In this document: one piece after another, positions 563-62,796 of the stretch
How the letters are laid out: every line of letters begins with the position of its first letter
Position numbering within the stretch: the first letter of the stretch is position 1
Notes under the pieces: model-generated
Seen by the model: the letters and a program-made list of their open reading frames with translations, nothing else
Told to the model about the DNA's origin: nothing
Database searches by the model: none
Translations under genes and position numbers: made by a program
Source of the DNA: Eledone cirrhosa
Lineage: Eukaryota
NCBI GenBank assembly: GCA_964016885.1
Contig: OZ024743.1
Span: forward strand, 189,720,001 to 189,784,000
DNA length: 64,000 nt
Reading direction: 5' to 3'

Positions 563-3140
563 TAACCCCACATTTAATGATCATAAAAATAACTTCGAAA
601 CTGACCCCACTATTAGATTAATATGCCCAACGAAATCGGATATAGGTAGAATTAGCAAGTATATACTAGATAGAATAATAGCACAAATTAAAGACAAACT
701 AATAATTAAGCTATGGGGTAACACTAACGAAGCAATAGATTGGTTTAGCAAAATAGACAATAAGGAAACATCCGACTTCATACAGTTTGACATCAATGAC
801 TACTAGTCCTCCATTTCCCTGGTCACCCTAAATAAGGCACTAACCTTAGCACAGAAAGACTCGGACTTATCCCCTGATGAAATTAGAATAATACTAGCTG
901 CTAGGAGAACTATCATTAGGTTCGATAATAGTTACTGGGAAAGAAAAAAACAAACAGAATAGCTTCGATATCACTATGCGATCTAGCAACTCACCTCAGG
1001 TAACAGACATAGTTGGAATATATATATAGCGCATAACTTACATAAGGAATTTAATAACCTCCAAGGAGGAATTTATAGAGACGATACACTCCTTTTAGCT
1101 AAAAACTTAAATAATCAAAACTTGGAATGATTAGGAAAAAACAGAATCTTCTTCAATAAACTAGGCATCACTTTCGAACTTAACTCTAAAAAAGCTAACT
1201 TCTTAGATGTAACACTCAACCTAAACTCAGGACTAATAGAGCCATTCCATAAAAATAACGAAAATCTAGGATATATTAGTATAACTCAAACTACCCTCGC
1301 TCCATAATTAACTCCTTAGCACATAGTGTATCCCTCAGAATTTCACGCTTATCTTCTAACCTAGAGATTTTTAATGAACACGCAAAGTACTATAACATAG
1401 CTTTACTTAAGGCAGGCTACAAGGAGAGGCTCAAATACATACCAGATAGAGACAACAACACACCTAATGACAGCTACACCACCCACACCTATAAAAATAG
1501 CAAATATAGGACTAAGCATAGAAATAGACAACAAGCACTAGAAATAAAAATGAACCGAATACTAATATAAGGACCCCTAGGAACTATAGAAAATCCAGAG
1601 ATAGGAAATACTTATGGTTCAATCCAATATTCAACTCCTCTATAAAAACTAAACTACCTTCTGCATTCTTTAAACTAATTGACAAGCACTTCCCTAAACT
1701 TCACAAATACCATAAAATCTTTAACAGAAAAACTATCAAACTATCTTACTCTACTGCAGCCAACATAGAATCACACATACATAAAATTAACTATAGAAAA
1801 ATCTCTAATGAAAATAACCTACAAACATACAGCATAACACCAAATACAAAACACAAAACAACATCACAACCACACACAACAGAACGCATCACAACAAAAC
1901 ATCAACAAACCTAAATCTCAACCCATATATAACAATATACAAAACCACAATGGAGAACCTGCACACAAGAGGGCCTCCAAATGTAACTGCCACTTACCGG
2001 ATAAGTGCTCACTACAAAATAGATGCCTGGAATCAAGTATAGTGTACCTGTGTACTATTAATTCGGACAACTTAGCATGGCACTACATAGGTTCTACAGC
2101 TGGGGAATTAAAAAAAAGATGGTATGTTCACAGACATTCTATGAAGAACTGTAGACTAGAGAACACAACAACACTAGCCAATAAAATCTGGCAGCTTAAG
2201 GATACAAACCAAGAATACAGGATTAGCTGGTCAAAATTATCGAGAGCAAATGCCTACAGAGATGGAATGTCCCACTGCAGACTTTGCAATATGGAGCTGT
2301 TCCAAATTTTAAAGTATGACAAAATGCTGCTTAAAAGCAAAATAGAACGATCAATTTTCTGTAGGCATAAAGCAGCTACTAAATTCGCAAATTTCAAACC
2401 AACATGATTCGATCCAACAATCCCATAATCCAAGCTGAACCACTCAGAAACCATTATAATAACTACATACCAAACCACTATTATTAGCTGTCAACAGACC
2501 AACTAATCACTAAATCAACATCATAAATCTCCTAATCTTTCTTTCACTCTCTCTCCCTAAAGCTATTTCAACTCCTCCCTTGTATCCTATCCTGTATCTC
2601 TTTACCTCTCACCTAACTTCTAATTTATTAATTTATCTTTTATATGTTATTTATCATTATATTCTTTCTACCTACTCTAAGCGTCTGTGATTTAACCAAT
2701 ACATATGTATATATTTAATATTTATTTTCATATTAATAGTATTTATACCCTCATCACATCTTTTTACTTACACACCACTATAACTTTAACCACCACCACC
2801 ACTTTCAACAATCATATTATGTTCATTTTTTTCACGTATATAATTTTTTACTTATTTTGGATCATCTTCATTCTAACTTCTTTATTATTATTTTTTCTTT
2901 TTCTTTTTCTTTTTCTTTTTCTTTTTCTTTTTCTTTTTCTTTTTCTTTTTCTTTCTTTATTATTGATGTATAAATACAAACACTGTGTATAATTTTGTCA
3001 GTTATTCCGATGATTTGATTAGAGATACATTGTATTTAAGGTTGAGTGACACAACTTCGAGTGATTAGCAACCTTTAGACATCCTAATCAATGAAACAAT
3101 TGCAAGTAGGGAAAAAGTGGATGTAAAAATGAAATGAATG
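563..3140 (+). mobile_element. Penelope-like element PLE-1 (Naiad-type), 5'-truncated and frameshifted, with 3' UTR/pLTR, in the last intron of the host gene
   Basis: Fragments DHKNNFETDPTIRLICPTKSDIGRISK, FIQFDI, GGIYRDD, FLDVTLNL, CNC..C linker and GIY-YIG (VYLCTINSDNLAWHYIG ... CRLCNME ... CRH). Stops and frameshifts throughout; the ORF ends at 2407. Confidence 0.92.
3001..3113 (+). ncRNA. Degenerate type I hammerhead ribozyme with ~79-nt stem II
   Basis: CCGATGA (3007-3013), stem II ttgattag/ctaatcaa with inner aaggttg/caacctt, then GAAAC aattgcaa GTA. The core has U4C and stem I is weak. Confidence 0.55.
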
Positions 3141-3200
3141 AATGAAATATATAATACATATGTGTTTGTGTGTTTACATATTTTATTTCTTTTCTTTCAG

Positions 3201-3476
3201 AACAAATTCATTCAGAGTGGTCTTTGGAGTATATCACGTCACCCAAACTACTTTGGCGAAATTCTCTTGTGGGTTGGTCTGTACATCACAGCTCAGAAAA
3301 CTATGGTTGACTATGAAAACCTCAGTATATTATCTCCAATGTTTATTGCCTTCTTGCTCATAAAAGTGAGTGGCATACCTATACTAGAAAAGATGGCATT
3401 TAAAAGATGGGGCACAAACCCTTCATATGTTGATTATGTTCAATCCACACGAAAGTTGATACCATTTATTTGGTAG
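3201..3476 (+). CDS. Terminal coding exon of a DUF1295 / steroid 5-alpha-reductase-like membrane protein
   Basis: Polypyrimidine tract plus AG ending at 3200, then a phase-0 exon NKFIQSGLWSISRHPNYFGEILLW...VSGIPILEK...YVQSTRKLIPFIW* (SRHPNYFGE motif). AATAAA near 3692. Confidence 0.9.
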   Translation, partial: NKFIQSGLWSISRHPNYFGEILLWVGLYITAQKTMVDYENLSILSPMFIAFLLIKVSGIPILEKMAFKRWGTNPSYVDYVQSTRKLIPFIW

Positions 3477-3724
3477 ATTTTCTGGAATGGGTGGGTGTTT
3501 AGGTGTATTTTGTTTATTTTGTGTTTTCTCTGTTCTGTTCCTGTCAAAATCAAACAAACCTTCAACATTTAAAAGGAATTTCAGCAGATATACCTAGTGG
3601 GGACAGTTAGCAGATCAAATTAATCAAACAAACTAATGAGTTAAGTTACTGGATCAAGTTAATATAATCAAGCTAGCCACTTGCATTGTATAATAAACAA
3701 TTGACTAAACCTGTAATTGAAAGA

Positions 3725-4320
3725 GCCAGCTTTGTCACACACTGTGTCACACTGAATTTTCCTTAGAATTATATTATGAATGCATATGTCTGTGGAATGA
3801 GCAGTCACACATCAATTTCATGAGCAACCTGTTCCATTGATTAACACTTTCCATCAAATCTCCTTGAGAAATATAAGTACACATATCTGGAGCATGCTCA
3901 GCCACTTTCATGTTAAATTTTATGAGTAGCCTGTTCCATTGACCGAACAACTGGAACAATCATAATAAAAATTAATGTTAGGTCCATCCGAATCTATTTT
4001 TTCAATAAGAGGGGAAGAATTCTGATTTCTTTTGTCTCTTCCTTTTAATGTATTATTTTTTAGTGTAATAAAAAATTTCTTTTGAACATTTGGTGTTCGA
4101 ATTTTCTCTAACAAATTTTATTTAAAAAATCACAATACAATGTTTTTATTTTTTTTATTTTGCACACTTACACATTATTGGTAGGCTGTACCATTGATAA
4201 AACAACTCAAAGACTCATTGTCAAATCGCTCTAAGAATTACATTATGGGTACATGTGGTTGTGGAATACTCAGCCACATACACATTAATTTGACAAGCAG
4301 ACTGTTTCATTGAAGAGGAT
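3725..4320 (+). repeat. Three degenerate copies of a short dispersed (probably SINE-derived) segment
   Basis: The motif cagccac...ttaattt..gagca..ctgttccattga recurs at about 3800, 3900 and 4270. Confidence 0.5.
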
Positions 4321-4399
4321 TGGTAAGTGTTACAGGGTGTGTCAAGAATGAGAGATGAGGCATTAATTACCATCTGATAAATAGTAAAGAAAGCCTTTT

Positions 4400-11525: not shown

Positions 11526-11819
11526 ATTATATAAATATAATTCCTTAAAAACTGAAGAGAAGGTGATTATGATTTGAACGTGCCCTTATATATATACTAT
11601 CCGGGAGTATATAGTATATAGTATATATATATACTATCCGGGAGCTTCCAACAGAAATGGTCGCATTCTCTAAGGGTATGTCAATATTTATTTATAAAAC
11701 TGATCTATATTATATTTTATCTGATGAAAGCGCACCATAATTTAACTTGGTGTCCTTGAAATATGTATAATAAAATAAATATGGTTTTATAAATATAGTT
11801 TCCATTTGTTAATATATCG

Positions 11820-11941: not shown

Positions 11942-12303
11942 CATGGCTTAGTGGTTAGAGCATTGGCCTTGCAATCGAAAGGTTGTGAGTTCAATTCTCA
12001 GACTGGGTGAGCAAGACACTTTATTTCACATTGCTCCAGTTTACTCAGCTGTAGAAATGAGATGTTAGGGACTGGGGCCCCTATCATTCCTCTGCAAAGT
12101 GGTCGTGGAGGTGCCACAGCAAAAAATTACCCAGCCCACACTGTACAGTGGTCGTGTAGGTGCCACAGAATAAAAGCACCCAGCACTCACTGTAAATGAG
12201 GTTGGTGTTAGGAAGGGTATCCAGCTGAAGAAAACAAGCCAGAATCAGTTCCCGTCCCACCCTTGCAAGCAGGGAAAAGTGGACGAAAAATGATGATGAT
12301 GAT
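11942..12303 (+). mobile_element. tRNA-derived SINE family B with RTE-type 3' tail
   Basis: A-box tggcttagtgg, B-box gagttcaattc, gagcaagacact core, ~43-nt subrepeats, and a tail cccgtcccacccttgcaagcagggaaaag..(ATG)n matching the RTE end at 21546-21613. Confidence 0.88.
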
Positions 12304-12344
12304 ATACATATAAATATATATTTTACTAATATATATATATATAT

Positions 12345-12729
12345 AAATTAATAAAAATAATGAATAAAAACAAAGAAACAGTTCCTTATATTAAAAAATT
12401 AATCATTTTACAATCGTTTCTAGGATATATATGTGTGTGTGTTGGTATGTATATCATATAGATCTATGTAAAGTTTTTACAAACTATCAGAGGGAATATA
12501 CATACCTACACATATATATGCTGTCTTCTGAAGACAGCATATATATGTGACAGCATATATATGTGTAGGTATGTATATTCCCTCTGATAGTTTGTAAAAA
12601 CTTTACATAGATCTATATGATATACATACCAACACACACACATATATCCTAGAAACGATCGTAAAATGATTAATTTTTTAATATAAGGAACTGTTTCTTT
12701 GTTTTTATTCATTATTTTTATTAATTTAT
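12345..12729. repeat. About 185-bp-arm fold-back palindrome of a pLTR-like sequence, axis at 12529
   Basis: The left arm 12345-12528 is the reverse complement of 12530-12729, apart from a 16-nt duplication and a few substitutions. Confidence 0.9.
12528..12668 (+). ncRNA. Hammerhead ribozyme core with ~100-115-nt stem II (5' strand of stem I lost at the inversion)
   Basis: CTGAAGA (12528-12534), arms atatatgtgt..ggtatgtatat / atatacatacc..acacatatat, then GAAAC gatc GTA. Confidence 0.65.
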
Positions 12730-13352: not shown

Positions 13353-13577
13353 AGTTTAACGTCCATCTTCCACGCTAGCCTGGGTTAGAAGGTTTTGTTC
13401 CATTTGATGTGGGAATGGTCGGGAGACCGTGCCTCGCTCATATGGAAGTGTCTCTGGCAGGTTGTTTTTTACCATGTCTCCTAGATGACCACCTTACAGT
13501 GTGGACTGTTGTGTCATTGACACAGTGGACGCAACAGAAAAGGGAGGATGGGGTAGGGTGTGTGGGGTGGGGTGTAC
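13353..13577 (-). mobile_element. RTE LINE 3' UTR fragment
   Basis: gtttaacgtccatcttccacgctagc.tgggttaga is the reverse complement of the family-1 RTE tail. Confidence 0.7.
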
Positions 13578-13606
13578 ATTTATATATATATATATATATA
13601 TATATA

Positions 13607-15055
13607 ACTTTTAGCGTAAAAGTTGGCGTCCATCAGGGCTCTGTTCTCAGCCCCCTACTATTTATTATTGCCCTTCAGGCTATAACAGAGGAGTTCATGG
13701 AACTCCTATACGCAGATGACCTGACACTCATAGCTGAATCAATGGCCGAGCTAGAGAAGAAATTCCAAACATGGAAGCACGGCCTAGAATCAAAAGGCCT
13801 TAAAATTAACCTGGCTAAGACTAAAGTTCTAGTTTGTAGGAAAGAAAATAAGGCGGCGGTCCCTTCCGGGAAATGGCCATGCTCAGTGTGTAGGAAAGGC
13901 GTAGGTAGAAACTCCATTTTATGTCCCAAATGCAAAGTATGGGTGCATAAAAGATGTAGTGGGATCACAGGTAAGCTAACTAAGAACTTAGATTTTACAT
14001 GTGGGCGGTGCTCTGGTGCAATAAGTAGCAGCGAGTGCCCACAAAATACTAACTCTTTCAATTGCGCAGAGGGCTTTATAGAAATAGTGGACAGCTTCCG
14101 TTACCTGGGTGACAAAATCAGCAGTGGGGGAGGGTGCTCCGAAAGTACAGTAGCTAGAGTCAGAACTGGATGGAAAAAGTTCAGAGAGCTTATACCACTA
14201 TTAGCCGCTAAAGGGTTCTCCCTAAAAATGAAAGGCAGGTTGTATGATGCTTGCATACGAACAGCAATGTTGCATGGCAGTGAGACCTGGGTATTTTGCG
14301 CAGAGGATATACGCAGACTAGAGAGGAACGAAGCTTGCATGCTCCGCTGGATGTGTAATAGTAATATACGTGAACGGCAAAGCATAAACGAACTAAGGAA
14401 AAAATTAGAAATAAGAGGGATCAAATGTTGTTTACTCGAGAGAAGGCTACGTTGGTACGGACACGTGATGCGCATGAAAGTCGATAGCTGTATAACAAAG
14501 TGCAGGGCAATAAAGATAGACGGTAGCCACGGAATAGGCAGACCTAGAATATCCTGGGACGAGCTGAAAAAATCCGACCTCACACACTTACACCTCTCCA
14601 AGACAATGTCACTGGACCGAGACCTTTGGCGGTACTCAGAAATAGAGAAGACCCGCCTTACCTAAATACATACTAAAACCTACTACAGCCAGTAGGCATC
14701 TCTAACAAAATACACCCCGTCCCACCACCCACACCCCATCCACACAACCCCCTCCTATGTAAAGTTATGTTGGTGCCACAACATCCAGGCCGAAACAAAT
14801 GAGATCGTGTAGGTGTCACGACAAAAAAACACACAGTCCACGCTGTAATGTGGCCGTGTAGGCAACACGGTAAAAACCTCCCAGACCCACACTGTAAATG
14901 TGGTTGGTGTTAGGAAGGGCATCCAACTGTAGAAAACCTGCCAGACAGTCCTATACGAGCAAGACAATCACTCTTGCTTCAAGTGGGAATACCCCCGTCC
15001 AAACCCATGCAAGCATGGAACACGGACGTTAAACGTTGATGATGATGATGATGAT
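13607..15055 (+). mobile_element. RTE-clade LINE family 1, 5'-truncated (RT, PHD-like finger, thumb, 3' UTR, (ATG)n tail)
   Basis: GVHQGSVLSPLLF, YADD, FRYLG, LHGSETW, RRLRWYGHVMRM, GRPR. The true homology starts right after the (TA)n at 13607 and the ORF ends at 14665. Confidence 0.93.
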
Positions 15056-15116: not shown

Positions 15117-15738
15117 TATATTACTAAAACAGAGAATGTCTGTTTGTCTGTCTGTCTGTCCAATCACTAAAACTCGAGAACCACCCAACCGATTGTTTTC
15201 AAACTTTACACATGTAATACTTATGGTCGTGTGAGTGTTGTTACAATGCCCTAAGGACCGCATTAGGCGATTTAGTGATCTCTTTCTCTCTCTCTTAGTC
15301 TTTCTCTTTTTACATAGATATAACGTTGCATCTTATAATATCTGTCTGTATGCCTGGCTGTCTGCATTACGTCATTATGACATGGTGTGTGTGTGTGTAT
15401 GTGTGTGTTTATGTATATATAATGTGTGCATATATATATATATATATAGTGTGTAACGGTTTTCGAAATATTTACTTCTGCGTTCACAGATTTATTATTT
15501 TAGTTTCAGAAGATCCCGTTAAGGGTGAAAGCAGCGATTCTTTGCTTAAACTTTAATATGTTATTTTAATATATATATATATATCGTTTCTGAATTTGTT
15601 TAGCAAGATTCTTTATCTGAAAACGTGTGTTGAAACCGAATTTATAAATTCCTAAATTTATAAATTTAATTTATAATAAATTGAAGTGAAAGCAAGTGGT
15701 GCATGTGTTTCTTATTGGCAACATGACCCTCCCAAAGA

Positions 15739-16289: not shown

Positions 16290-16400
16290 TTTTCCTGTAC
16301 TCGAGTTTCGAGCACACTTAATGCAGCAATAGAGTGCACACCATCTACTGTCTGCATTTATTATACAACAATGCACAATTGGTGCATGTGTCTTCATCGG
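16290..16400 (-). ncRNA. Hammerhead-like motif with ~84-nt stem II (no stem I pairing visible)
   Basis: Minus strand CCGATGA agacaca...gtgtgctc GAAAC tcga GTA. Confidence 0.4.
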
Positions 16401-20713: not shown

Positions 20714-20747
<34 letters not shown>

Positions 20748-20756
20748 TATATATAT

Positions 20757-21613: not shown

Positions 21614-21755
21614 TATATATATATATATATATATATGCGGATTACAGCTGACAAAGGATTCTTTCTTCTTTTCTCCTCTTGTCCCGTCCAAACCACCATC
21701 CTAAACCATGTTTTTAGTAACCACGCAGCTCCTTTTGTTTCTTATCATTATATAT

Positions 21756-38312: not shown

Positions 38313-38386
38313 GTATGTATGTGTGTGTGTATATATATATATGTATGTGTGTATGTATATATATATGTATTAAAATAACAGATTAA

Positions 38387-38437
38387 AGTTTAAGCAAAGA
38401 ATCGCTGCTTTCACCCTTAACGGGATCTTCTGAAACT
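38387..38437 (-). ncRNA. Hammerhead-like motif (CAGAAGA core) in the PLE-3 pLTR
   Basis: Identical in core and stems to 15502-15552 and in the sense orientation of PLE-3. Confidence 0.6.
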
Positions 38438-38514
38438 AACAAAGTCAATCTGTCAACGCAGAAGTGAATATTTCAAAAAACGTTGCAACCGGAGGAAGAC
38501 AGGAAGACGATACT

Positions 38515-46731: not shown

Positions 46732-47138
46732 TAACTCCCTCACGGTAGAGTAACCACGGAAGTATAGTGACTGCTTTCAAGCAAACACTATATACACATC
46801 TAGTCAACCTTACAACCCCTCTGTAGCCTCTGTATCATATTAATATCACCCTCCGCCTTCTGAGATATTTTTCACTGCTACAAGGGATTAATCCCCTTTC
46901 TTGACCGGTATATCACGTGATAGAGTCTCCCTCCACCTTTTTGAGATTTTCTCGCTTGCTACGGACGTATGTAGTTAGGGCTCTTCCCCGAGGTGCTCCC
47001 TTGATAAGCTGGCTTACCTCACAACAATGTTACATATCTATGATATAACATTTTCGCATAGTGACCAGCGAAACTGTACAGTCGGGACGAAGAAAACATA
47101 GGTATATTGTGTCTATTATTCCTTATTTTATAATATTT

Positions 47139-47140: not shown

Positions 47141-47190
<50 letters not shown>

Positions 47191-47260
47191 GGAGGTGAGT
47201 TTTATTGTAGTACAATAATTGGATACCTTTTGATGGTCTTTTACCTTTTTCTTCTACAAC

Positions 47261-49648
47261 ATGGATTATTACAACATAACCAATTCAACTAAAAACATTC
47301 CTATACCTGGTAAATCTGAATTCACCAAACTTCTAATTGAAAAAACTGACTCCTTTGTAAGAAAGCTTAGATGGATAGCTTATTTCTATGATCAGCGCCG
47401 AAAAGGGAACTTTTATACCAAGGAACATAACTTCCTCGATCATCTATTTAACTCTAGAAGAAATCCTCCTTCCAACAAAAATCTAGTGCAATTCGAGGAA
47501 GAGTTAACAAAAATTATAAAAAATCTTAAATTCAAGAGATACCCTTACAAAGGACAAGAGCACCTTGTAAATCTCAAGAACACAATTTCAAACCTAAATT
47601 TCTCAAAAAATGTTTTAGTCCACTCTGACAAAACCAATAATTTATATGGCATTTCCAAGGATAACTATAACAACCTTATCCTAAAGGAACTTAGGAAAAA
47701 ATATCGTAAAACCAACCATGATAATTTAGAATCCATAAACTTTGAAGCTTCTGAGATTATGTTAAAACTTGGCATCGGAAAAAAGACCGAACCATTCCTC
47801 CCAAGAACTCCGAGGATAAATCTCAAGGATCACAAAAACAATTTTCGTACTGAACTGCCTGTTAGATTAATCGCCCCCTCTAAATCAGATCTGGGGGTTG
47901 TTAGCAAAGCCATCTTGGCTAGAATTATCCCACAGGTTCGTTCTAATTGCTCTTCTTTGAAGTTAAATTTATGGTTTGGTACTTCTGAAGTGATTGGCTG
48001 GTTCAACAAATTGAATAATAAAAACAAACTAAAATTTGTTCAATTTGATATTGCCAGCTACTATTCTTCTATTTCGCCTTCACTTCTCAACAATGCTCTA
48101 TCTTTCGCATTTAAATATTCTGACATCACCACAGATGAACTTCACATCATTCTCACCGCACGTAAAACCATCCTAGAGTTCAACAATGAATATTGGACCA
48201 GAGCTGATACCTCTAACAACTTCGACATCACAATGGGAGCATCCGATTCATCCCAATTGACAGATTTAATTGGTATCTTTATTTTGAACTCTTTGAGTCG
48301 CAAAATTCCTCAACTTCGCGGTGGAATTTATCGTGACGATGGACTCTTTACTATCTTAAATTGCAACATAGTTAACCTTAATATTATTAAGAACAATATA
48401 CGTAATCTCTTTAACCAACATAACTTAAAAATTGAATTTGATAACAGCATCAAACTAGCTAATTTCTTGGATGTATCTCTTAATCTTGACACTGGCCTAT
48501 ATTACCCTTATCATAACAAAATGAGAACCTAAATTATGTTAATTTTAAATCTAACCACCCCCACTAATATTAAGAATGCTATAGTTAGTAATATTGGAAA
48601 AAGAATATGTAACCTATCTTCTAATAAAAACATCTCTGATGCTAACGCCAATTACTATAATAACGCGCTTTCTAAAGCCGGCTATCCTGATAAAATCAAA
48701 TATAGTAATGAAACAAATTCTAGAAGATCTTACAGTAGAATAATTAATCATGATCATTCTAATAACTTTAATAAAAGACCTAGATACAAAAACATAATCT
48801 GGTATAATGCTCCTTTCTCCATCTCTATTAATAATAATATTCCTAAATTATTCTTTAGTGCCTTCAATAAATGCTTCCCCCCCTCACATATCTATAGTAA
48901 AATATTTAACAAACACACTATAAAATTTTCCTATTCGACCTCCTCCAACATTTCCAACATTATCTCTAAACACAACAATAAAATACTAAATACTAAATCT
49001 CTTCCATCCAACACTGAATATCATAATAATAGTAATAGTACTCTCGACGTCATTGTAAACTCTAGGCTAATTTCTGCAAACCCAAATACAACGTCAAACA
49101 CAACTTCGCTAAATCAAGAAACTATTATTCCTATCGTAAATAACTTCTCCAATCCAATTCCTTCTATAGATAACACTAGGTCACTCGTTAATAACTCTGC
49201 TAATCTCTCTAATCGCAATTGCAATTGCCCTGTTAAAAATAAATGTCCTCTCAACAACCATTGTCTTGAAAAAAACTTAATCTACGAATGTAAAGTTATA
49301 ACTGACACCAATTCCTTCACCTATTTTGGCTCCACTTCCACCTCCTTTAAAGCTCGTCTTTATAATCATCATTCGTCTTTTAAATACCAATTTAAAAGAA
49401 CCAACACGGCACTCTCAGAACTCATATGGTCCTTGAAAGACAAAAATATTAAATATAACATCTCTTGGAAAAAGGTTTCTTCTGCTTCTCCATACTTGAA
49501 CAGTTCTCTATCCAAGACTTGCAATCTCTGTTTAAATGAAAAATTTACCATTATTTCTAATTTAGATTCTATAATAAAGAGACGCACTGACTTGTTTTCT
49601 ATCTGCTTGCATAAATTCCACAGAACATTCCATAAAGTATACAGCTAA
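47261..49648 (+). CDS. Penelope-like element PLE-5 RT + GIY-YIG polyprotein (Naiad-type), nearly intact
   Basis: STKNIPIP, KLRWIAYFY, HSDKTNNLY, FVQFDI, MGASDS, GGIYRDDGL, CNCPVKNKCPLNNHC, LIYEC..YFG, CNLCLNE, CLH. The two listed ORFs share a frame and are broken only by a compensated -1/+1 indel pair at about 48514-48562. Confidence 0.93.
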
Positions 49649-50260: not shown

Positions 50261-50717
50261 TACAAACCTTAACTTAACATTATTTTTCTCTTCGTTAATT
50301 TTCAAATTCTTTTAATTTATATATTATCTTCCAACGGTTTTTCAACCTCTCTATGTAAAACAATATATTTTCCTCAATTATAAAAGCTATCCTTCTCTCT
50401 CTATCACCCATCTCTCCTCCTATCTCATCCTTCCTCATTATACTCCTCCCCTCCACTTTTTACTCTCATCTCCTCCTCTTTTTAATCCTTTCCAACCTCC
50501 CCCTCCTCAAAAAATCTTTTTTCCCAATATCACACATCAATCTAAAACTACTTTTCATATGTTGATTTAAAACTGCACTATTCACAAGTGTTTTTTTAAC
50601 CTTCATATAATGTCTTCCTATTTTATCTGTTGAAAACACAAATGTTATTGCATGATGAAATTTGTTTTTGAAATGCGCATAATAAAATACATGGAACTCT
50701 TTTAACCATCTTTTGAT

Positions 50718-51133: not shown

Positions 51134-51260
51134 TCTTATATAAACAGGTTTTAACGGTATTTATTCCTTTGTATTCATTTCTTTTATATATACATATATA
51201 TACGCATATATACATATATATATATACATATATATATTCACACATATATATATATATATA

Positions 51261-53227
51261 TCATCATCATCATCATCATCGTTTAACGTCCATATTCCAC
51301 GCTTGCATGAGTTTGAACGGGAGTTTTCCCACTTGAGGCAAGAGTGGTTGTCTTGCTCGCATAGGACTGTCTGGCGGGTTTTCTACGGCTGGATGCCCTT
51401 CCTAACACCAACCACATTTACAGTGTGGAACTGGGAGGTTTTTACTGTGTTACCTACACGGCCACATTACAGCGTGGACTGTGTGTTTTTCGTCGTGACA
51501 CCTACACGACCTCATTTGTTTCGGGCTGGATGTTGTGGTACCAACATAACTTTACATTGAAAGGAGTGGTGTGGATGGGGTGGGGGTGTATTTTGTTAGA
51601 GGTGCCTACTGAATGTAGTAGGTTTCACTTTGTACTTAGGTAAGGCGGGTCTTCTCTATTACTGTGTAGCGCCAAAGATCTCGGTCCAGTGATATTGTCT
51701 TGGAGAGGTGTAAGTGTGTGAGGTCGGAATTTATCAAGTCGTCCCAGGTTTTTCTGGGCCTGCCTACTCCGTGGCTACCGTCTATTTTTATTGCCCTGCA
51801 CTTTTTTTTATACAGCTGTCGTCTCTCATGCGCATCACGTGACCATACAAACGTAGCCTTCTCTCGAGTAAACAACATCTGATCCCTCTTAATTCTAATT
51901 TTTCCTTAGTTCGTTTATGCTTTGCCGTTCACGTATATTACTATTACACATCCAGCGGAGCATGCAAGCTTCGTTCCTCTCTAGTCTGCGTATATGCTCT
52001 GCACACAATGCCCAGGTCTCACTGCCATGCAGCATTGCTGTTCGTATGCAGGCATCATACAGCCTGCCTTTCATTTTTAGGGAGAACCCTTTAGCGGCTA
52101 ATAGTGGTATAAGCTCTCTGAACTTTTTCCATCCAGTTCTGACTGTAGTTACTGTACTTTCAGAGCACCCTCCCCCACTGCTGATTTTGTCACCCAGGTA
52201 ACGGAAGTTGTCCACTATTTCTATAGAACCATCTATGCAATGGAATGAGCTAGTATTCTGTGGGCACTTGCTGCTACTTATTGCACTCGAGCACCGGCCA
52301 CATATAAAATCTATGTTCTTAGTTAGATTACCTGTGATCCCACTACATCTTTTATGCACCCATACTTTGCATTTGGGACATAAAATGGAGTTTCTACCTA
52401 CTCCTTTCCTACACACTGAGCATGGCCATTTCCCGGATGGGACCGGCGCCCTATTTTCCTTCCTACAAACTAGAACTTTAGTCTTAGACAGGTTAATTTT
52501 AAGGCCGTTTGATTCTAGACCATGCTTCCATGTTTGGAATTTCTTCTCTAGTTCGGCCATTGATTCAACTATGAGCGTTAAATCATCTGCGTATAGGAGT
52601 TCCCACGGGCAGCCGGTCTTGAACTCCACTGTTATAGCCTGAATGGCGATAATAAATAGTAGGGGGTTAAGAAGGAGCTCTGATGAACACCAACTTTTAC
52701 GCTAAACTCTTCACTATATTCGTTGTTTATTCTAACCTTGCTGGCTGTTTCTTTACACATGGCTTGTATAGTTCTCACAAGCTATTCATCAACACCTAGT
52801 TTTCTAAGAGCCCACCAGATAATGGAACGGGGGTGACTGTCAAAGGCTTTCTCCAAGTCAACAAAAGCTAAGTATAGGGATTTACTTTTAGCTAGGTACT
52901 GCTCCTGTAGTTGTCGTACAATGAAAAGAGCGTCTGTGTTACTTTTGCCTGACACAAACCCGAACTGCATTTCATCTAGATCAATTCTCTCTCTGATGAG
53001 TTGCGCTATTACTTTTTCTGTGACCTTCATGATCTGGTCGATTAATTTAATGCCTCTATAGTTACTCCTATCTAGGGCATCACCTTTATCCTTGTATCAG
53101 TTAATGATGATGCTGCTACGCCAGTCCTTCGGAACAAACCCATTCTGTATGACTTGGTTTACTATCCGAGTGACCATGGTGTGTCCCACCGTTCCAGAAG
53201 CTTTCAGCATTTCAGCAACCATTTCCA
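51261..53227 (-). mobile_element. RTE LINE family 1, 5'-truncated
   Basis: Minus-strand LDEMQFGFVSGK, AFVDLEKAFD, YADD, PHD-like finger, 3' UTR and (ATG)n. Confidence 0.93.
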
Positions 53228-53265
53228 TATATATACATATATATTTATAATCAAATATATATATA

Positions 53266-56200
53266 ATCATCATCATCCTGGTTTAACGTCCACTTTCCAC
53301 GCTAGCATGGGGTAAACGGGAGTTGTCCCACTTGAAGCAAGGTTGGTCGGGTGACCGTGTCTCGCTCATATAGGACTATCTGGCAGGTTTTCTACGGCTG
53401 GATGCCGTTCCTAACACCAACCACATTTACAGTGTGGAACTGGGAACATTTTACCGTGTTACCTACACGGCCACATTGCAGCGTGGACTGTGTGTTTTTT
53501 TCTCGTGACACCTACACGATCTCGATCTCGATCTCATTTATCTCATTTATTTGGACTGGATGTTGTGGTACCAACTTTATAGAGAGAGGGTGGTGTTGGT
53601 GGGAGCGGGACAATAGGGTAGAGGTAGTGGATTGGGATGTATATTTGGTTAAGAGGTGCCTACTGACTGTAGGTTTCACTTTGTACATAGGCAAGGCGGG
53701 TCTTCTGTATTACTGCGTAGCGCCAAAGATCTCGGTCCAGTGACATTGTCTTAGAGAGGTGCAAGTGTGTAAGGTCGGAATTTATCAGATCGTCCCAGGT
53801 TTTACTGGGTCTACCTACTCCGTAACTACCATCAATTTTGATCGCCCTGCACTTTTTTTTATACAGCTGTCGGCTTTCATGCGCATCACGTGGCCATACC
53901 AACGTAGTCTTCTCTCGAGTAAACAGCATCTGGTCCCTCTTATTCCTAATTTCTCACTTATTTCATTTATGGTTTGACGTTCACGTATATTACTATTACA
54001 CATCCAACGGAGCACGCATGCTTTCGTTCCTTTCCAGTCTACGCAGGTCCTCTGCACATAATGCCCATGTCTCACTGCCATGTAGCATTGCTATTCGTAT
54101 ACAAGCATCATACAATCTGCCTTTCATTTTTAGAGAGAAAACTTTTGTGGCCAACAGCGGTATAAGCTCTCTGAACTTTTTCAATCCCTTTCTGACTCTG
54201 GCTACTGTACTTTCAGAACACCCTTCACCACTGCTGATTTCGTCACCCATGTAACGGAAAGTGTCTACTATTTCTATAATACCATCTGGGCAATGTAATG
54301 AGCTAGTATTCTCTGGGCACTTGCTGCTACTTATTGCACCAGAGCACCGGCCACATATAAAATCTATATTCTTAGTTAGCTTACCTGTGATCCCACTACA
54401 TCTTTTATGTACCCATACTTTGCATTTGGGACATCAAATTGAATTTCTGCTTACTCCTTTCCTACACACTGAGCAAGGCCATTTCCCTGAGGGTACCTGT
54501 GCCTTATTTTCCTTTCTACAAACTAGGAATTTAGACAAGTTAACTTTAAGGCGTTTTTATTCTAGGCCATGCTTCCATGTTTGGAATTTCTTTTCTAGTT
54601 CAGCCATTGTTTCAGCTATGAGCGTTAGATCATCTGCGTATAGGAGTTCCCATGGGCAGCCGGTCTTGAACTCCTCTGTTATAGCCTGAAGGGCAATAAT
54701 AAATAGGAGGGGGCTAAGTACAGAGCCTTAGTGAACACCAACTTTTACACTAAATTCTTCACAATATTCATTGTTAATTCTAACCTTACTGATTGTTTCA
54801 TTATACATAGCTTGTATAGCTCTCACAAGCCATTCATCTACACCTAGTTTCCTAAGAGCCCACCAGATAATGGAGCGGGGGACTCTGTCAAAGGCTTTTT
54901 CCAGGTCTACAAAAGCTAAGTAGAGGGGTTTATTTTTAGCTAGGTACTTCTCTTGTAATTGCATTTCATCTAGATCTTGTAATTGCATTTCATCTAGATC
55001 AATTCGCTCTCTGATTAGTTGCGCTATAACTCTTTCTGTGACCTTCATGACCTGGTCAACTAACTTAATGCCTCTATAGTTTCCTCTATCTAGAGCATCT
55101 CCTTTACCCTTGTAGCAGTTAATGTTGTTGCTGCTACGCCAGTCTTTTGGTATGACCCCATTCTGTATTACTTTGTTAACTATACGGGTGACCATAGTGT
55201 GTCCCACCATTCCAGATGCCTTCAACATCTCAGCAACTATCTCCGAAGGCCCAGCTGCTTTGCCTGTCTTCATATCTTTGATTGCCTTACTTTTTATACT
55301 ACTTTTAATTTGCACCGCTGGTCCTTCTATTGGATCGATTTGGGGCAGACTATCTTTTTCCCACTTATTCTCCTCATTTAATAGTCTCTCGTAGTGACAC
55401 TTCCAGGCTATCTTCTTATCAGCATCAGTGAGGGCAAGTACACCGTTATCATTACGGACACACTTCTCCCCAACAATATCACGGTTTTCCTTGACACATT
55501 GTCTAGCAATCCTGAACACCTCGCGTATTTGGTCCTCGCGTTGTAGAACATGGTTGAACTTTCTATCCTCTGCTTCCCTTTTTGCAAGGTACACTTGTCT
55601 CCTAGCTTTTCTCCTGGCCACTTGATACTGCTCTCTACTTCCCCCATCCTGCCATACTTTCCAAGCCTACTTTTTGGCCTTGATTGTCTCTTCTACCTTT
55701 CTGTTTCACCACCAAGTTACTCTCCTCCTGCCAATAGGTCTGCTCCAGCTACAGATTTCATCCGTTGCTTTCAGCATGTTCACTTTCAAGAATTGCCACT
55801 GTTCCTCTATATCGCACGTCTCTAATTGCTCTTCCTTATTGTCAAATGTATAACAAGGTACTGGTATGTATGACTATAACAAAACACTAGGTTGTGTATA
55901 TAACGTTTAATTAACAAGTTGAGGTTATGTAGAACAGTATAGTTGACATGTCAATGAGTAATAGATGAAAGAATGAAGTAAAGTTATTTGTTACCGTTTT
56001 GAAGTTAGCTCGCAAGAGGCCATGTTAGGCTTGCCAGACGAACGCGCCTGGCCGAAGGGCCAGGCAGGTTAGAAGGCCAGGAGCCGAAAGGCAAATGAGA
56101 GATAGAGAGCTGAAAGTTATTCCCTTTATAGGTCCTGGGACGGAAGTGACAAAAAGGGCTCTGCCACCCCAACGGGAAGCAACTCCAGCTACTTTCTGTT

Positions 56201-57345
56201 TAGAGAGCGTTACTCTATTGGTGATGTGATCGTCACAACAATAGAGGCAACTCTTGCTACAAAGGCATCAAGTAATAAGCTTTTAAATTTGTCACTGGCT
56301 ACGGGGTCCTTCAACTTCCATATTCTTCTCCTCAAGGTAGGCCGCCTCTGTCGTCGAGTATGTCTATTTCTGACTGTGAGGTCACTAACTACTAGGCTAT
56401 GTTGGGAGGTGCAGTCTTCACGGGGAGGGATTTAGTGTTTACAACAGACACTTTGTCCCGTCTTCTAGTAAGGATATAATCTATCTGGCTGGCGTGTTCC
56501 TCTGATATATAGGTGATCAAGTGGTTTTCACGTTTTTTGAAGTTTGTGTTACAGATAGTCAGGTTATTGGCGTCACAGAATTCCAGGATTCTGAAGCCTT
56601 CTTCATTTCTATTTCCAACCCCATAGACTCCATGGATTCCATCATAGCCATCACTATGTTGTCCAACGTGGCCGTTTAGATCGCCAGCAATAATTAGGTA
56701 GTCCCTGTCGGTTATTTGGGAGGTAGTGTGCATTAGCGTCTCATAGAACCTGTCCTTTATAACGGCAAGTAGACCAGATTGGGGTGCATAAGCGGATATT
56801 ATTGTCACAGTAGTTTTATTTAGAACTAGCCTTATTTTAATTATTCTGTCATTCACTCTATTTACGTCAATTACCTTATCTACCCATTTTTCAGCTAACA
56901 TAATTCCTACTCCACCCAGTCCGTTGTCGTTTCCCACCCAGAAAAGTTTATAGCATCGTTTTTTACCCACGATGAATCTGGCAGATCCCCCCCCCCCACA
57001 CCACTTTCCACCTAGTCTCTTGAATACAACAAACATCAACTTCTTTACGTTCAAGCATCTCTACAACCTCATTTCAGCGACCTTTCAATGTGCCTACGTT
57101 CATGGTACCAACTCTGAAGTTGGGAGGGTGGGATGGATGGGATGGAGGGGCAGGGGGTGGGGGTGTAGGAGACGGAATTTTGTTGGTCATCCGTGTCTGA
57201 AATAAAGAGAGGCCTTGCAGCGGGAGGTGACATTGTCATTGAGTGCTTAGACTTTTCAAATTTCCACAGTCAACCCATCAAACCGGTCTAAACTTAAGGA
57301 GTAGTAACCGAGGTGGTAGCTTTGCTATACTGATTTGTTAGAGAA
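53266..57345 (-). mobile_element. Near full-length RTE LINE family 1 (APE endonuclease + RT), decayed and interrupted by a solo LTR
   Basis: RVGTMNVGTL, SAYAPQ, IAGDLNGHVG, SQIDYIL (APE); KAAGP, YRGIKL, YADD (RT); 3' UTR and tail. Confidence 0.93.
55847..56261 (-). mobile_element. Solo LTR related to the 8357-8729 LTR, inserted in the RTE
   Basis: Shares aacagtatagttgacatgtcaatga, gttaccgttttga, the gcctggc..gccaggc hairpin and gtcacaacaa..gaggca..tgctaca. It interrupts the RTE codons LLDAF/DNKEE. Confidence 0.85.
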
Positions 57346-57496: not shown

Positions 57497-57547
<51 letters not shown>

Positions 57548-57548
<1 letters not shown>

Positions 57549-57900
57549 AAGGCGCATGGCTTAGTAATTAGAGCATTAGGCTTGCAATCGAAAGGTTGTG
57601 AGTTTAATTCTCGGACCGGGTGATGTGTTGTTTCCTTGAGCAAGACACTTTATTTCAGTTTACTCAGCTGTAGAAATGAGATGATAGGACTGGGGTTCCT
57701 ATCATTCCACTGTAAAGTGGTCGTGGAGGTGCTACGGCAAAAAAGCACCCAGTCCACACTGTAAAGTGTACGTATAGGTGCCACGGAAAAAAAGCATCCA
57801 GTATTCACTGTACATCCAGCTGTAGAAATCAATCCAGAATCAGTTACCATATGAGCAAGACAAGGTCAGCCGACTGGACACTGCCCATAACAGGACAACC
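57548..57900 (+). mobile_element. SINE family B
   Basis: ggcgcatggcttagtaattagagc, ccttgagcaagacact and the subrepeats. Confidence 0.85.
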
Positions 57901-58633: not shown

Positions 58634-59793
58634 GAATAACCTAACTATCTGTAACACAAGCTTCAAAAAATGAGACAATCACTTGATCACCTATAGATCA
58701 GGGGAACACGCCAGCCAGATAGATTATATCCTTACTAGAAGACGTGACAAAGTGTCTGTTGTAAACACTAAATACCTCCCCCGTGAAGAATGCACCTCCC
58801 AACATAGCCTAGTAGTTAGTGACCTCATAGTCAGGAATAGATATACTCGATGAGAGAGGAGGACTACCATGAGGAGAAGAATATGGAAGTTGAAGGAGAC
58901 CACAGCCAGTGACAAATTTAAAAGCTTATTACTTGATGCCTTTTACAATAAGGAAGAGCAATTAGAGACATGCAATATAGAGGAACAGTGGCAATTCTTG
59001 AAAGTTAACCTGCTGAAGGTGAGGGATGAAATATGTGGCTGGAGCAGACCTATTGGCAGGAGGAGAGTAACTTGGTGGTGGAACAGTAAGGTGGAGAGGT
59101 CAATCAAGGCCAAAAAGTAGGCTTGGAAAGTATGGCAGGATGGGGGAAGTAGAGAGCAGTATCAAGTGAGCAGGAGAGAAGCTAGGAGACAAGTGTACTT
59201 TTTAAAAAAGGAAGTAGAGGATAGAAAGTTCAAGCATGTTCTACAATGTGAGGACCAGAAACGTGAGGTGTTCAAGATTGCTAGACAATGTGTCAAGGAA
59301 AACCGTGATATTGTCGGGGAGAAGTGTGTCCATAATGATAATGGTGTACTTTCCCTCACTTATACTGATAAGAAGGTAGCTTGTAAGTGTCACTATGAGA
59401 GACTACTAAATGAGGAGAATAAATGGAAAAAAAGATAGTCTTCCCCAAATCGATCCAATAGAAGGATAGCGGTGCAAGTTAAAAGTAGTATAAAAAGTAA
59501 GGCAATCAAAGATATGAAGACAGGCAAGGCAGCTGGGCCTTCGGAGATAGTTGCTGAGATGTTGAAAGCATCTGGAATGGTGGGACATACTATGGTCACC
59601 CGGATAGTAATACAGAATGGGGTCGTACCGAAAGACTGGCGTAGCAGCATCATCATTAATTGCTACAAGGGTAAACTATAGAGGCATTAAGTTAGTTGAC
59701 CAGGTCATGAAGGTCACAGAAAGAGTTATAGCGCAACTAATCAGAGAGCGAATTGATCTAGATGAAATGCAGTTTGGGTTCGTTTCAGGTAAA
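58634..59793 (+). mobile_element. RTE LINE internal fragment (end of APE to start of RT)
   Basis: SQIDYILTRR, VTWWWN, DIVGEKCV, KAAGP, YRGIKL, MQFGFVSGK, then an abrupt switch to PLE sequence. Confidence 0.9.
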
Positions 59794-60805
59794 ATTCTTT
59801 GAAATTCTACATAAACATTTTCCACCAAACCACAGATACCACCAAATATTTAACAAATATACTGTTAAATTCTCATACTCTACATCAAACAATCTCCAGC
59901 AAAAAATAAGCAACTACAACATTTATAAACTTAAAGATAATATGACTACAGCACCACAACATAATTTAAATAGGACTGCACCTTTTAAAAAGACAAATAA
60001 TACAATCCTTCAACCTGGAAAACACAACCACCCAAATCACCAACACAAAAACAACAGAACACAAAATCACAATACAACCCTAGCACCAAACCACCCACAA
60101 AGCAACCTTCATTCTCCTGCTAACATTAATTACAGTAGGAATAGCTCAAGGATTAATGAGAATAGTATAGGCACCCCCAACAACCATCTTACGTATGGCT
60201 GTAATTGCAGAAATAGAAGCATTTGCCCCTTAAATGGCAACTGTTTGATTATCAATGTAATATATAAATGCACTATGTCTACTACAGACTCCAACAAAAC
60301 ATATATAGGATCTACATCAAACACATTTAAGGACAGATTTTACGCACATCTAGTAGTTTTAACAATACTAAACTAGCTAACACCACATCTTTAGCTGAAG
60401 CAGTAAATAATTACAAAAAGAAAAAAATAGATTTCAAGCTATCGTGGAACACCATTCTAGAAATAACTCCATATCTTGGGAACAGGAGAGAATGCAGATT
60501 ATGTTCGGGGGAGATCTTGGAAATTACTAAATCTAAGGACGATTTATTAAATAAAAGAGAGGAACTGATCATAGTTTGTAATTACCGTATACGAAGAACA
60601 TTTAAATACTATAAACCTAATTAAATATTCTAAATAGCAACTCACTATAATTCTATATAGAGTAACATTTGTTAGTACCCCTCTCCCCTAATTATATGCA
60701 TTCATGCTTATCTTTTACCTTTTAATGTTTAAGCTTCCTTAGGTTTATGCGTTAATGACTAAAGGCAACAAGGTACACAACCACCCGTAATTGCATGAGT
60801 AAATA
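59788..60805 (+). mobile_element. Penelope-like element PLE-6, 5'-truncated (linker + GIY-YIG)
   Basis: KHFPPNHRYHQIFNKYTVKFSYS, CNCRNRSICPLNGNC, VIYKC..TYIG and, after a frameshift, ECRLCSGE..LLNKREEL. Confidence 0.9.
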
Positions 60806-60854: not shown

Positions 60855-60910
<56 letters not shown>

Positions 60911-61129
60911 ATATATTTAGAAACACACAGATACATGCGGACACACACATATATACATGAATGCATCCGCACCCAACCGTGAGTTAAGGGTGCCAATGAA
61001 TGACTGGGACAGACCAATTCAGTTGAACCAGACTGAACCAGTATCAGAGTTAAAAATACATTATGAAGAGAGAAGAAACATTTAGATATAATTAGTAATA
61101 AAATGTATCATACCTAAACTGCTCCTAAA

Positions 61130-61219
61130 TTCCTCGACTACGTAGTTTCGTGGCATAAACAAAAACAATATATCAAAGATATAGAGTCCCTGCGAGGTCT
61201 GCCGACTTATCAAGAGGAT
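61130..61219 (-). ncRNA. Hammerhead ribozyme (U3:A8) in the inverted arm
   Basis: Reverse complement of 61888-61975. Confidence 0.85.
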
Positions 61220-61887
61220 ACCTCATTTTACTAGTCTCAAGAACGCGTCTACACGACGTGAGAAAGAATCCCAAAAGGCGGAGGGGGAGATAGTCACGCG
61301 ATATAACGGTCGAGAAACAGAGCTAGGGACTCTATATCTTTGATATATTGTTTTTGTTTATGCCACGAAACTACGTAGTCGAGGAATTTAGGAGCAGTTT
61401 AGGTATGATACATTTTATTACTAATTATATCTAAATGTTTCTTCTCTCTTCATAATGTATTTTTAACTCTGATACTGGTTCAGTCTGGTTCAACTGAATT
61501 GGTCTGTCCCAGTCATTCATTGAGCAACATCGGTGAAGTTGGCACCCTTAACTCACGGTTGGGTGCGGATGCATTCATGTATATATGTGTGTGTCCGCAT
61601 GTATCTGTGTGTTTCTAAATATATTAATAACTCCCTCTGGTCGAGCAATCTTTGAAGTGTGGGGACAACTGGAAAGCTTCCATTACTCATACTTCTCGCC
61701 TTCTTCACTACCTCTTCTACGGCCTCGATATGAATACCCCCTCCGCCTCCGTGGTATTTTCTTCGTGGTTATAAGAGGCTTAGCTCTGTTTCTCGACCGT
61801 TATATCGCGTGACTATCTCCCCCTCCGCCTTTTGGGATTCTTTCTCACGTCGTGTAGACGCGGTCTTGAGACTAGAAAAATGAGGTA

Positions 61888-61975
61888 TCCTCTTGATAAG
61901 TCGGCAGACCTCGCAGGGACTCTATATCTTTGATATATTGTTTTTATTTATGCCACGAAACTACGTAGTCGAGGA
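61888..61975 (+). ncRNA. Hammerhead ribozyme, U3:A8 variant with 57-nt stem II
   Basis: tcctc TTGATAA gt.ggca...atatc tt tgatat...tgcc.ac GAAAC tacgta GTC gagga. Predicted cleavage after 61970. Confidence 0.88.
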
Positions 61976-62477
61976 ATTTAGGAGCAGTTTAGGTATGATA
62001 CATTTTATTACTAATTATATCTAAATGTTTCTTCTCTCTTCATAATGTATTTTTAACTCTGATACTGGTTCAGTCTGGTTCAACTGAATTGGTCTGTCCC
62101 AGTCATTCATTGAGCAACATCGGTGAAGTTGGCACCCTTAACTCACGGTTGGGTGCGGATGCATTCATGTATATATGCGTGTGTCCGCATGTATCTGTGT
62201 GTTTCTAAATATATTAATAACTCCCTCTGGTCGAGCAATCTTTGAAGTGTGGGGACAACTGGAAAGCTTCCATTACTCATACTTCTCGCCTTCTTCACTA
62301 CCTCTTCTACGGCCTCGATATGAATACCCCCTCCGCCTCCGTGGTATTTTCTTCGTGGTTATAAGAGGCTTAGCTCTGTTTCTCGACCGTTATATCGCGT
62401 GACTATCTCCCCCTCCGCCTTTTGGGATTCTTTCTCACGTCGTGTAGACGCGGTCTTGAGACTAGTAAAATGAGGTA

Positions 62478-62565
62478 TCCTCTTGATAAGTCGGCAGACC
62501 TCGCAGGGACTCTATATCTTTGATATATTGTTTTTGTTTATGCCACGAAACTACGTAGTCGAGGA
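62478..62565 (+). ncRNA. Hammerhead ribozyme (second tandem copy)
   Basis: Same as 61888-61975; predicted cleavage after 62560. Confidence 0.88.
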
Positions 62566-62705
62566 ATTTAGGAGCAGTTTAGGTATGATACATTTTATTA
62601 CTAATTATATCTAAATGTTTCTTCTCTCTTCATAATGTATATATATATTTATATATATATATATAAATTTTATCACGTGATAAAATTTGCTTCGGACATA
62701 ACACC

Positions 62706-62796
62706 CGTGTCTGAAAGAACCCGCAGAAGTAGAATCAGCCAGATCCATACAAGGACCATGACTCGAGCTACATGCCGGTGAAACATTTGTAACACG
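62706..62796 (+). ncRNA. Hammerhead ribozyme of an unrelated family with ~61-nt stem II and one extra A in the core
   Basis: cgtgt CTGAAAGA acc.gca..gtag...ctac.tgc.ggt GAAAC attt GTA acacg. Confidence 0.7.

Follow-up and report, generated by a model that had tools for sequence, protein, structure and literature searches.

The 64,000-nucleotide (nt) stretch of the octopod Eledone cirrhosa analysed here (assembly GCA_964016885.1, contig OZ024743.1, positions 189,720,001 to 189,784,000; hereafter the window, numbered from 1) contains type I hammerhead ribozyme motifs at the 3' ends of Penelope-like elements (PLEs) whose sequences place them in the Hydra clade. Stem II of these motifs is drawn out into an arm of 56–117 nt. 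Eight such motifs, seven and a weaker one at 16400, had been named in a preliminary description of the window, and all of them were confirmed at their sites with the stem II lengths given there. We consider it probable that these hammerheads would cut tandem transcripts of the elements and that stem II has grown, family by family, into a long arm that is kept folded and probably has no job of its own. This reading starts from what the DNA displays directly, namely the anatomy of the motifs, their link to Hydra-type open reading frames (ORFs), arm lengths far above the norm of the clade and a high copy number of one family (family A). Cutting by these motifs is predicted from sequence, and any job for the arm would be hypothetical.

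Anatomy of the long-armed hammerheads

Every core position and all three stems are intact only in motif 47001 of family A and in the three motifs of family B (61893, 62483 and, on the minus strand, 61213). Motif 47001 (46997–47087, plus strand) has a core with the U3-A8 variant, a 62-nt arm (47008–47069), a palindromic stem III and a predicted cut after C47083, and it sits in a solo 3' piece of about 410 nt that ends at a (TA)n run. Motif 61893 (61888–61975, plus strand), with a U3-A8 core, a 57-nt arm and a palindromic stem III, belongs to a 590-nt non-coding tandem unit. The second intact tandem copy is 62483 (62478–62565, plus strand), and 61213 (61131–61218, minus strand) lies within an inverted 5' copy (60908–61324). 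The core boxes CUGANGA (or the U3-A8 variant) and GAAA and the NUH triplet are exact in these four motifs and in 36911 (36911–37019, plus strand), a 90-nt rod with a broken proximal stem I. The U3-A8 core is common to family A, family B and the family of 42065.

One or two core changes are present in four other motifs. The worn hammerhead 3007 (3002–3109, plus strand; 79-nt stem II at 3014–3092) has U4C and U16.1C; the worn 16400 (16298–16400, minus strand; 84-nt arm), in an insert of about 480 nt between (TA)n runs, has U4C; 42065 (41975–42070, minus strand; 56-nt arm), with a longer stem III, has C15.2A; and 62711 of family D (62706–62796, plus strand; 61-nt arm, 5-bp stem I) has one extra base in its 5' box. 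All three stems, with the structure open at stem I (4–5 bp), are found in 47001, family B, 42065, 62711 and 3007, and proximal stem I is missing in 36911, 16400 and 12528. The 5'-truncated motif 12528 (12528–12663, plus strand) has the longest arm, of 117 nt. Its 5' box sits on the axis of an inverted repeat (12343–12729), and part of the box was therefore made by symmetry. Its arm fails to close because of a fresh 16-nt duplication; the inverted twin (12405–12528, minus strand) has a 103-nt arm that closes as one rod (z −4.6).

When folded alone and compared with dinucleotide shuffles, the arms had z values from −1.5 to −5.3, and seven of the eight were at −2.1 or lower. The weakest was that of 61893 (−1.5), whose tandem twin 62483 reached −3.1; the arm of 36911 gave −4.3 and that of 42065 gave −5.3. 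Among 120 random window segments, seven reached −2.1 or lower and two of these also closed end to end. The rod-like stem II reported earlier does not apply to 16400, whose arm has two predicted hairpins, or to the unclosed forward copy of 12528. Pairing between arm and flank was shared by no two families, the sole case being an 8-nt match just after the cut site of 36911. A Schistosoma-like stem II of 4 bp with the conserved contact between loop 1 and loop 2 is absent from these motifs, in which stem II spans 56–117 nt.

Loose descriptors yield many chance matches. The strict scan used here required the core boxes, a paired stem III and a closed arm of 40–160 nt, and two core variants were included only after the candidates had been inspected. 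It gave six matches from four sequence families, against a mean of 0.27 and a maximum of 2 in 200 block shuffles. With a stem I of at least 4 bp, there were five matches from three families against a shuffle mean of 0.01. A further candidate at 32486–32660 (plus strand), with boxes 149 nt apart and a 4-bp stem I, was judged doubtful; its arm has a z of −1.3, opening the core costs 8.2 kcal, and no (TA)n end is nearby.

Several copies had been overlooked in the preliminary description. Besides 62483 and 61213, these are a truncated copy of the 42065 family at 35170–35213 (plus strand) and a family B copy at 61325–61385 (plus strand) that is cut off inside stem II at an inversion junction. The former retains the 3' part of the arm, the GAAAC box, stem III and GUC, and is the right arm of a palindrome (35111–35229) centred inside stem II; this sister, at 35187, has C where 42065 has C15.2A. 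Six hammerheads with short or middle-sized arms had also been passed over and are treated below.

The carrier elements are Hydra-clade PLEs

The window is crowded with pieces of RTE-type retroelements and six ORF pieces of PLEs. The PLE ORFs carry RW, DKT, YRDDG, CNC..CP, CxLC and CxH motifs and stand at 31–42% against six full-length relatives. LRW or LRWR, DKT and YRDDG are present in the ORFs at 47261 and 39776–41594, and the C-terminal GIY-YIG domain with a CxCX5C-type linker, CxxC and CxH is represented by CNC..CP, CxLC and CxH. In Craig et al. 2021 (PMC8557442), RW, DKT in place of DKG and a GIY-YIG domain with a CxC linker mark the Hydra clade. By these marks the elements are Hydra-clade PLEs. 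Pfam assigned no family to any of the seven PLE pieces searched. In a tree of 71 rows covering the C-terminal part of window and marine-metagenome sequences, a branch supported at 98% by the Shimodaira-Hasegawa-like approximate likelihood ratio test (SH-aLRT) separates the six window ORFs from all other rows; the tree is unrooted with long branches, one row is 18% filled, and the published Hydra consensus proteins were compared by eye.

The end of a Hydra-type ORF precedes motifs 3007, 36911 and 42065, with no intervening (TA)n run. Upstream of 3007 lies a frameshifted, 5'-truncated ORF (540–2407, plus strand); upstream of 36911, a 5'-truncated ORF with thumb, linker and part of the GIY-YIG domain (35388–36437, plus strand); and upstream of 42065, a C-terminal endonuclease fragment (42542–42955, minus strand). 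The remaining long-armed motifs are bounded by (TA)n runs and belong to solo 3' pieces, to tandems or to inverted 5' copies. The elements of the window are inserted into (TA)n and form both partial tandems and inverted 5' copies. With 35189 excluded, the predicted cut falls 39–230 nt before the next (TA)n run or the end of the tandem unit in 12 of the 14 other motifs, the exceptions being 3007 and the doubtful 32486. This anatomy and the link to Hydra-type ORFs support the earlier assignment of the motifs as type I hammerheads of Penelope-type repeats.

Three further PLE ORFs are present. A near full-length, frameshifted ORF (39447–41594, minus strand) has no detected hammerhead in its own 3' flank, and a broken, 5'-truncated fragment lies at 59780–60625 (plus strand). 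The near full-length ORF at 47261–49648 (plus strand), with one break near 48530, is followed by its own hammerhead, 50627, which has a 36-nt arm. Motif 47001 had been considered as the 5' pseudo-long terminal repeat (pLTR) of this ORF; this was dropped, as the motif at the 3' end of the ORF is a different one. The leader of the ORF (47186–47260) begins with a GTGAGT resembling a splice donor and has a pyrimidine tract before the ATG. PLEs have 5' introns.

The repeats had been called unrelated, which does not hold. Families A and B are homologous (z of 4.7 for the arm and 14 for the upstream DNA), families A, B and 42065 have the U3-A8 core in common, and all of the ORFs belong to one PLE clade and group together. 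Family B consists of the 590-nt non-coding tandem, with two consecutive intact units, and its inverted 5' copy; it is likely a retrozyme-like derivative of a PLE end. A palindrome with an E-box-like core lies 40–95 nt upstream of the hammerhead in family A (46911–46922), in family B (61801–61812, one base off) and in family D (62671–62682); it is a possible internal promoter site. Perfect inversions are frequent among the PLEs of the window, and integration palindromes are 93–97% perfect.

Arm length compared with the norm of the clade

All 26 Hydra rows in File S2 of Craig et al. 2021 (PMC8557442) have a stem II of 3–7 bp with a loop of 3–10 nt, including the Octopus bimaculoides family (7 bp and 8 nt). 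The 56 motifs in Fig. S3 of Cervera and de la Pena 2014 (PMC4209133) are likewise short; the descriptor used there allowed at most 7 bp and 10 nt, and a helix II called larger than usual has 7–8 bp. Among 78 related marine-metagenome loci, fetched from the best 80 of 118 confirmed, 41 had a hammerhead match. The arm was 10–25 nt long in 49 of the 50 sense-strand matches, and the other one was a doubtful match of 145 nt. When 26 of the remaining 37 loci were inspected under relaxed criteria, 12 had short arms and none had a closed long arm. The long metagenome matches in L045 (145 nt) and L034 (168 nt) were judged to be chance, their stem III being weak. Since the published stem II does not exceed about 24 nt and the related matches agree, the long arm of the window departs from the norm of the Hydra clade, and the long form is neither the published norm in the Craig and Cervera sets nor the norm in related loci.

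Six hammerheads of the window have shorter arms: 44296 (44288–44343, plus strand; 12 nt), 15507 (15499–15556, plus strand) and 38432 (38383–38440, minus strand) of one family (14 nt), 63927 (63880–63935, minus strand; 20 nt), 11721 (11713–11778, plus strand; 30 nt, U15.2-A16.2, 8-bp stem I) and 50627 (50619–50690, plus strand; 36 nt, A6U, 8-bp stem I, 39 nt before a (TA)n run). The published short form of stem II in Hydra elements is matched by 44296 and 15507/38432 and nearly by 63927, whereas eight long-armed sequence families do not match it. Arm lengths in the window are therefore 12, 14, 20, 30, 36, 56, 57, 61, 62, 79, 84, 90 and 103/117 nt, which is a range and not two classes; the distinct architecture proposed earlier is not borne out.

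The stems of 19 short-armed relatives covary strongly, with double changes in 10 of 12 pairs. A covariance model built from these relatives found five short- or middle-armed window motifs at E < 0.005 and none of the eight long-armed ones, which is a blind spot of the model and not absence. Together with the published limit of 7 bp and 10 nt, this agrees with the earlier expectation that a capped descriptor would miss the long form. Of the 140 Rfam matches of the window at E ≤ 5, none was to a hammerhead family, which is a weak test: in a control with 10 loci Rfam recovered no sense-strand short-armed Hydra motif and only the two minus-strand ones in L021. The latter (2636–2682 and 2917–2963) pass the Rfam Hammerhead_1 cut-off; they lie in tandem at a distance of 281 nt, on the other strand from a Hydra PLE, in a retrozyme-like arrangement. 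No related locus and no match to the long-arm pattern was found in viral contigs.

Some core variants recur with arms of different lengths. U3-A8 cores with short arms (11–16 nt) are found at the marine Hydra-type loci L013:2400, L024:2103 and L060:1769, and the variant is therefore not tied to long arms. U4C (CCGANGA) occurs in three window families (3007, 16400 and 63927, the latter two on the minus strand) and in the otherwise perfect metagenome motif L047:1726, and may therefore be a tolerated natural variant. U4A is present in both copies of the 15507/38432 family.

A literature search found no described class of PLE hammerheads with a long stem II; Lunse et al. 2017, which may bear on this, lies outside the comparison. 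The passages considered of PMC3088659, PMC6765202, PMC10085705, PMC13725137 and PMC6466107 contain no such class, and the long helix II of PMC13725137 has 6–8 bp. Hammerheads in Hydra PLEs are already known, as are single long examples; none of the published Hydra rows compared here has an arm of 56–117 nt.

Variation and folding of the arm

Family A was compared with the reads of four runs, and 40 of its 166 variant rows are considered here. Its depth is about 1600–2700 reads in two restriction-site-associated DNA (RAD) runs of one organism, and contig depth also peaks over the motif. The long form is therefore common to many copies. The 40 listed variants spare the conserved core bases, stem III and the five basal pairs of stem II. 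Two of them fall in the constrained part of the motif, one at N7 and one turning a C-G pair of stem I into U-G, whereas 7 of the 52 positions of the inner arm vary (Fisher p 0.29; 0.018 when N7 and U-G are left out post hoc). Between families A and B there are double changes that keep the pairs, from C-G to U-A in stem I and in the second pair of stem II and from G-C to A-U in stem III, where the palindrome is kept; these were compared by eye in two families. The variant pattern and these double changes suggest constraint on the core and on the base of stem II, and constraint along the arm is hinted at.

No joint in the family A reads removes the arm, and one row, at about 5% of the reads, deletes 1 nt of it. 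At one arm position the variant is the commonest letter, and it makes the predicted fold better by 2.5 kcal. Among six other common arm variants, two stabilise the tip, two are neutral and two break a predicted pair; the mean change in folding energy (ddG) of 0.03 is not clearly lower than the 1.03 of random changes (P 0.11). The stabilising ones, 47036 A>C and 47045 A>G, would give an 11-bp hairpin with a ddG of −8.6 if carried by the same copy. The arms hold 16–33 predicted pairs, and their longest unbroken helices are 4–9 bp. Clear sequence similarity between arms is limited to A with B, 1 of the 45 pairs compared, and the arms match nothing else in the window; the cargo ascribed to them earlier is not supported. 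A suggested mark of A-to-I editing did not appear either: family A has no sense-strand excess of A>G (13 against 11 for T>C, 12 against 10, and 7 against 4).

Junctions of 5' truncation or inversion lie inside the arm or core at 12528, 35170 and 61325, and one junction is at about arm position 16–17 in both family A (47024) and family B (equivalent to 61915). Junctions in the arm may mark pausing of the reverse transcriptase; their sampling is biased.

Origin and possible role of the long arm

Under the reading that we favour, the hammerhead would cut tandem or read-through transcripts after the NUH near the end of the element. In families A and B, two copies could pair through the palindromic stem III, by analogy with published PLE hammerheads, for which action as dimers through such a stem III has been proposed in PMC4209133 and in the review PMC6765202. 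A long stem II would be tolerated because, with no contact between loop I and loop II, a stem that presumably points away from the active site could grow without harm provided that it remained closed. The arm may have grown through duplication and fold-back errors of the element's reverse transcriptase, of which the 16-nt duplication in 12528 would be a fresh example. Selection would then act on the closed fold, because an open loop of 60–100 nt would misfold the core. The spread of lengths from 12 to 117 nt within one window and the lack of a common arm sequence suggest length drift rather than a fixed module.

Several points weigh against this reading. Among the eight named motifs, six are altered in the core or have lost an intact stem I. 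Tightly cut monomers are not always predicted to adopt the hammerhead fold: 47001 folds otherwise (z −0.25), although with longer flanks the hammerhead fold is the predicted minimum. The two pair-breaking arm variants of family A have a ddG of +3.6 and +3.1. In the PLE studied in PMC11167929, the hammerhead needs protein and is dispensable for insertion in vitro. Moreover, stem II has lengthened again and again, in about seven families within a single host lineage, and the arms are mostly paired; pure tolerance would not require this, and it may reflect a function.

The arm could instead be a working module, a platform for the reverse transcriptase or endonuclease of the element that aids folding or activation of the ribozyme or positions the start or end of reverse transcription. 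In favour of a protein platform, cleavage by the PAc hammerhead depends on its protein, and reverse transcription starts in a stem-loop near that hammerhead (PMC11167929). The three sites given above, where inversion junctions touch the arm or core, also make it attractive; three of the four opposite-strand joints have one side in the arm, although RAD joints are visible only near a restriction site and hence biased. Families A and B retain a similar tip hairpin and a short common 5' stretch, arm length is held among family A copies, and the two tip-stabilising variants point the same way. However, no motif is common to families beyond A and B, sister families in the window manage with arms of 12–36 nt, and the six arm variants do not have a clearly lower mean ddG than random changes. 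We regard a module as a tentative possibility. Its stronger version seems to us unlikely: stem II of octopod Hydra-type PLEs would be a dedicated arm of 60–100 nt, bound by the protein of the element (or by host enzymes for double-stranded RNA, dsRNA) and gating cutting or reverse transcription, and long-armed hammerheads would form a large hidden class, which would also account for some of the PLE clades, such as Naiads, in which hammerheads are reported to be lacking. ADAR editing is extensive in coleoid cephalopods, and the arm might target ADAR or Dicer of its octopod host as a decoy, switch or silencing trigger. The number of predicted pairs per arm fits this, as do four G-U pairs of family B on the strand where family A has several A residues. 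Decay by C>T gives G-U pairs just as easily, however, the unbroken helices are short for Dicer and the sense-strand A>G excess is lacking in family A, and we consider a dsRNA target very improbable.

Two further explanations treat the long arm as a relic or as chance. The arms could be relics, fold-back palindromes of integration that split dead hammerheads in elements that no longer cut; frequent perfect inversions among these PLEs, damage in most named copies and the position of 12528 on an inversion axis would agree with this. In family A, however, a deep pool of reads representing many copies combines the long arm with a conserved core. Family B is present in three intact copies that are almost identical, arm length has been kept between A and B (62 and 57 nt) despite sequence change, and the arms are imperfect, bulged rods unlike the integration palindromes. 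We give the relic explanation little chance of being right. Chance juxtaposition of core-like words in AT-rich DNA could produce matches to a loose descriptor, and 32486 may be one of them. The strict scan with stem I (5 against 0.01 expected), the placement at element ends and the compensatory changes between A and B make chance barely tenable overall; it is refuted for 47001, the 61893 family and 62711, and 16400 and 3007 are less sure.

Setting in the host sequence

The window is AT-rich animal DNA (35% G+C) with 103 (TA)n runs. A coding exon of a DUF1295 gene at 3201–3473 is 84% identical to the DUF1295 protein of O. bimaculoides, the best among 120 matches listed. The PLE end with motif 3007 lies about 95 nt upstream of this last DUF1295 coding exon in the same sense, and the two core changes of 3007 would be expected if a live intronic hammerhead were harmful. 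Long interspersed nuclear element (LINE) copies of the RTE type with a PHD-finger-like insert after the reverse transcriptase domain are found at 13379–14665, 16685–18385, 20742–21625, 29733–30910, 51185–57060 and 58635–59794. Heads of short interspersed nuclear elements (SINEs) related to tRNA are at 11942–12005 (plus strand; Rfam tRNA, 29.9 bits), 34734–34800 (minus strand) and 57547–57815. A motif resembling the hepatitis delta virus (HDV) ribozyme at 31844–31922 (minus strand) scores 31.7 bits against RF02682, below the gathering threshold of 44, with E 3e-4 for a search of 351 nt; its P1 and P2 are paired, P3 has one mismatch, and it lies outside the PLE repeats as far as seen.

Significance and comparison with known systems

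The descriptors behind animal hammerhead counts cap stem II near 24 nt, and the long form is therefore missed. Statements that PLE clades such as Naiads are without hammerheads become directly testable once this cap is lifted. The families of this one genome, with arms from 12 to 117 nt, offer a natural series in which to study the role of PLE hammerheads and their recognition by the protein of the element. Should the arm be no more than tolerated growth, annotation would still improve, and the families would supply natural counterparts of the stem II extension long used in engineered hammerheads.

The closest known system is the set of Hydra-clade PLE hammerheads in PMC8557442. The window elements have the same clade motifs (RW, DKT, C-terminal GIY-YIG and CxC linker) and (TA)n targets, and their hammerheads are likewise of type I, near the 3' end, with a small paired stem III after GAAAC. 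Unlike those Hydra rows, the window motifs have a stem II of 56–117 nt and three families with a U3-A8 core. The metazoan PLE hammerheads of PMC4209133 are similar in being of type I, in pLTRs and poorly conserved in sequence; a palindromic stem III, the U3-A8 variant, an additional base where stem II begins and proposed dimers are further common points. Those motifs, however, are all short-armed.

Longer cases appear in PMC8557442 for spike-moss PLE-X1_sMoe, with 9 bp and a 35-nt loop (53 nt; marked as deviating, with PLE-X1_sTam listed alongside), and for eight Naiads, two of them from cephalopods, given as 'HHR_half_core' with core halves 35–50 nt apart. These differ from the window motifs in being single flagged rows from other clades that are mostly shorter than the window arms and not described as a class, and the Naiad half-cores are not accepted there as hammerheads. 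Family B resembles the non-LTR retrozymes of Cervera and de la Pena 2020 (PMC7229834) and of the preprint by Li et al. 2026 (10.64898/2026.07.22.740005) in being a non-coding tandem with one type I hammerhead per unit; it differs in its unit of 590 nt against about 300–400 nt and its long stem II. Finally, the hammerhead of PAc Poseidon (Frangieh et al. 2024, PMC11167929) likewise adjoins the element end, but it belongs to another clade, has a short stem II (cut 26 nt after its start) and is protein-assisted.

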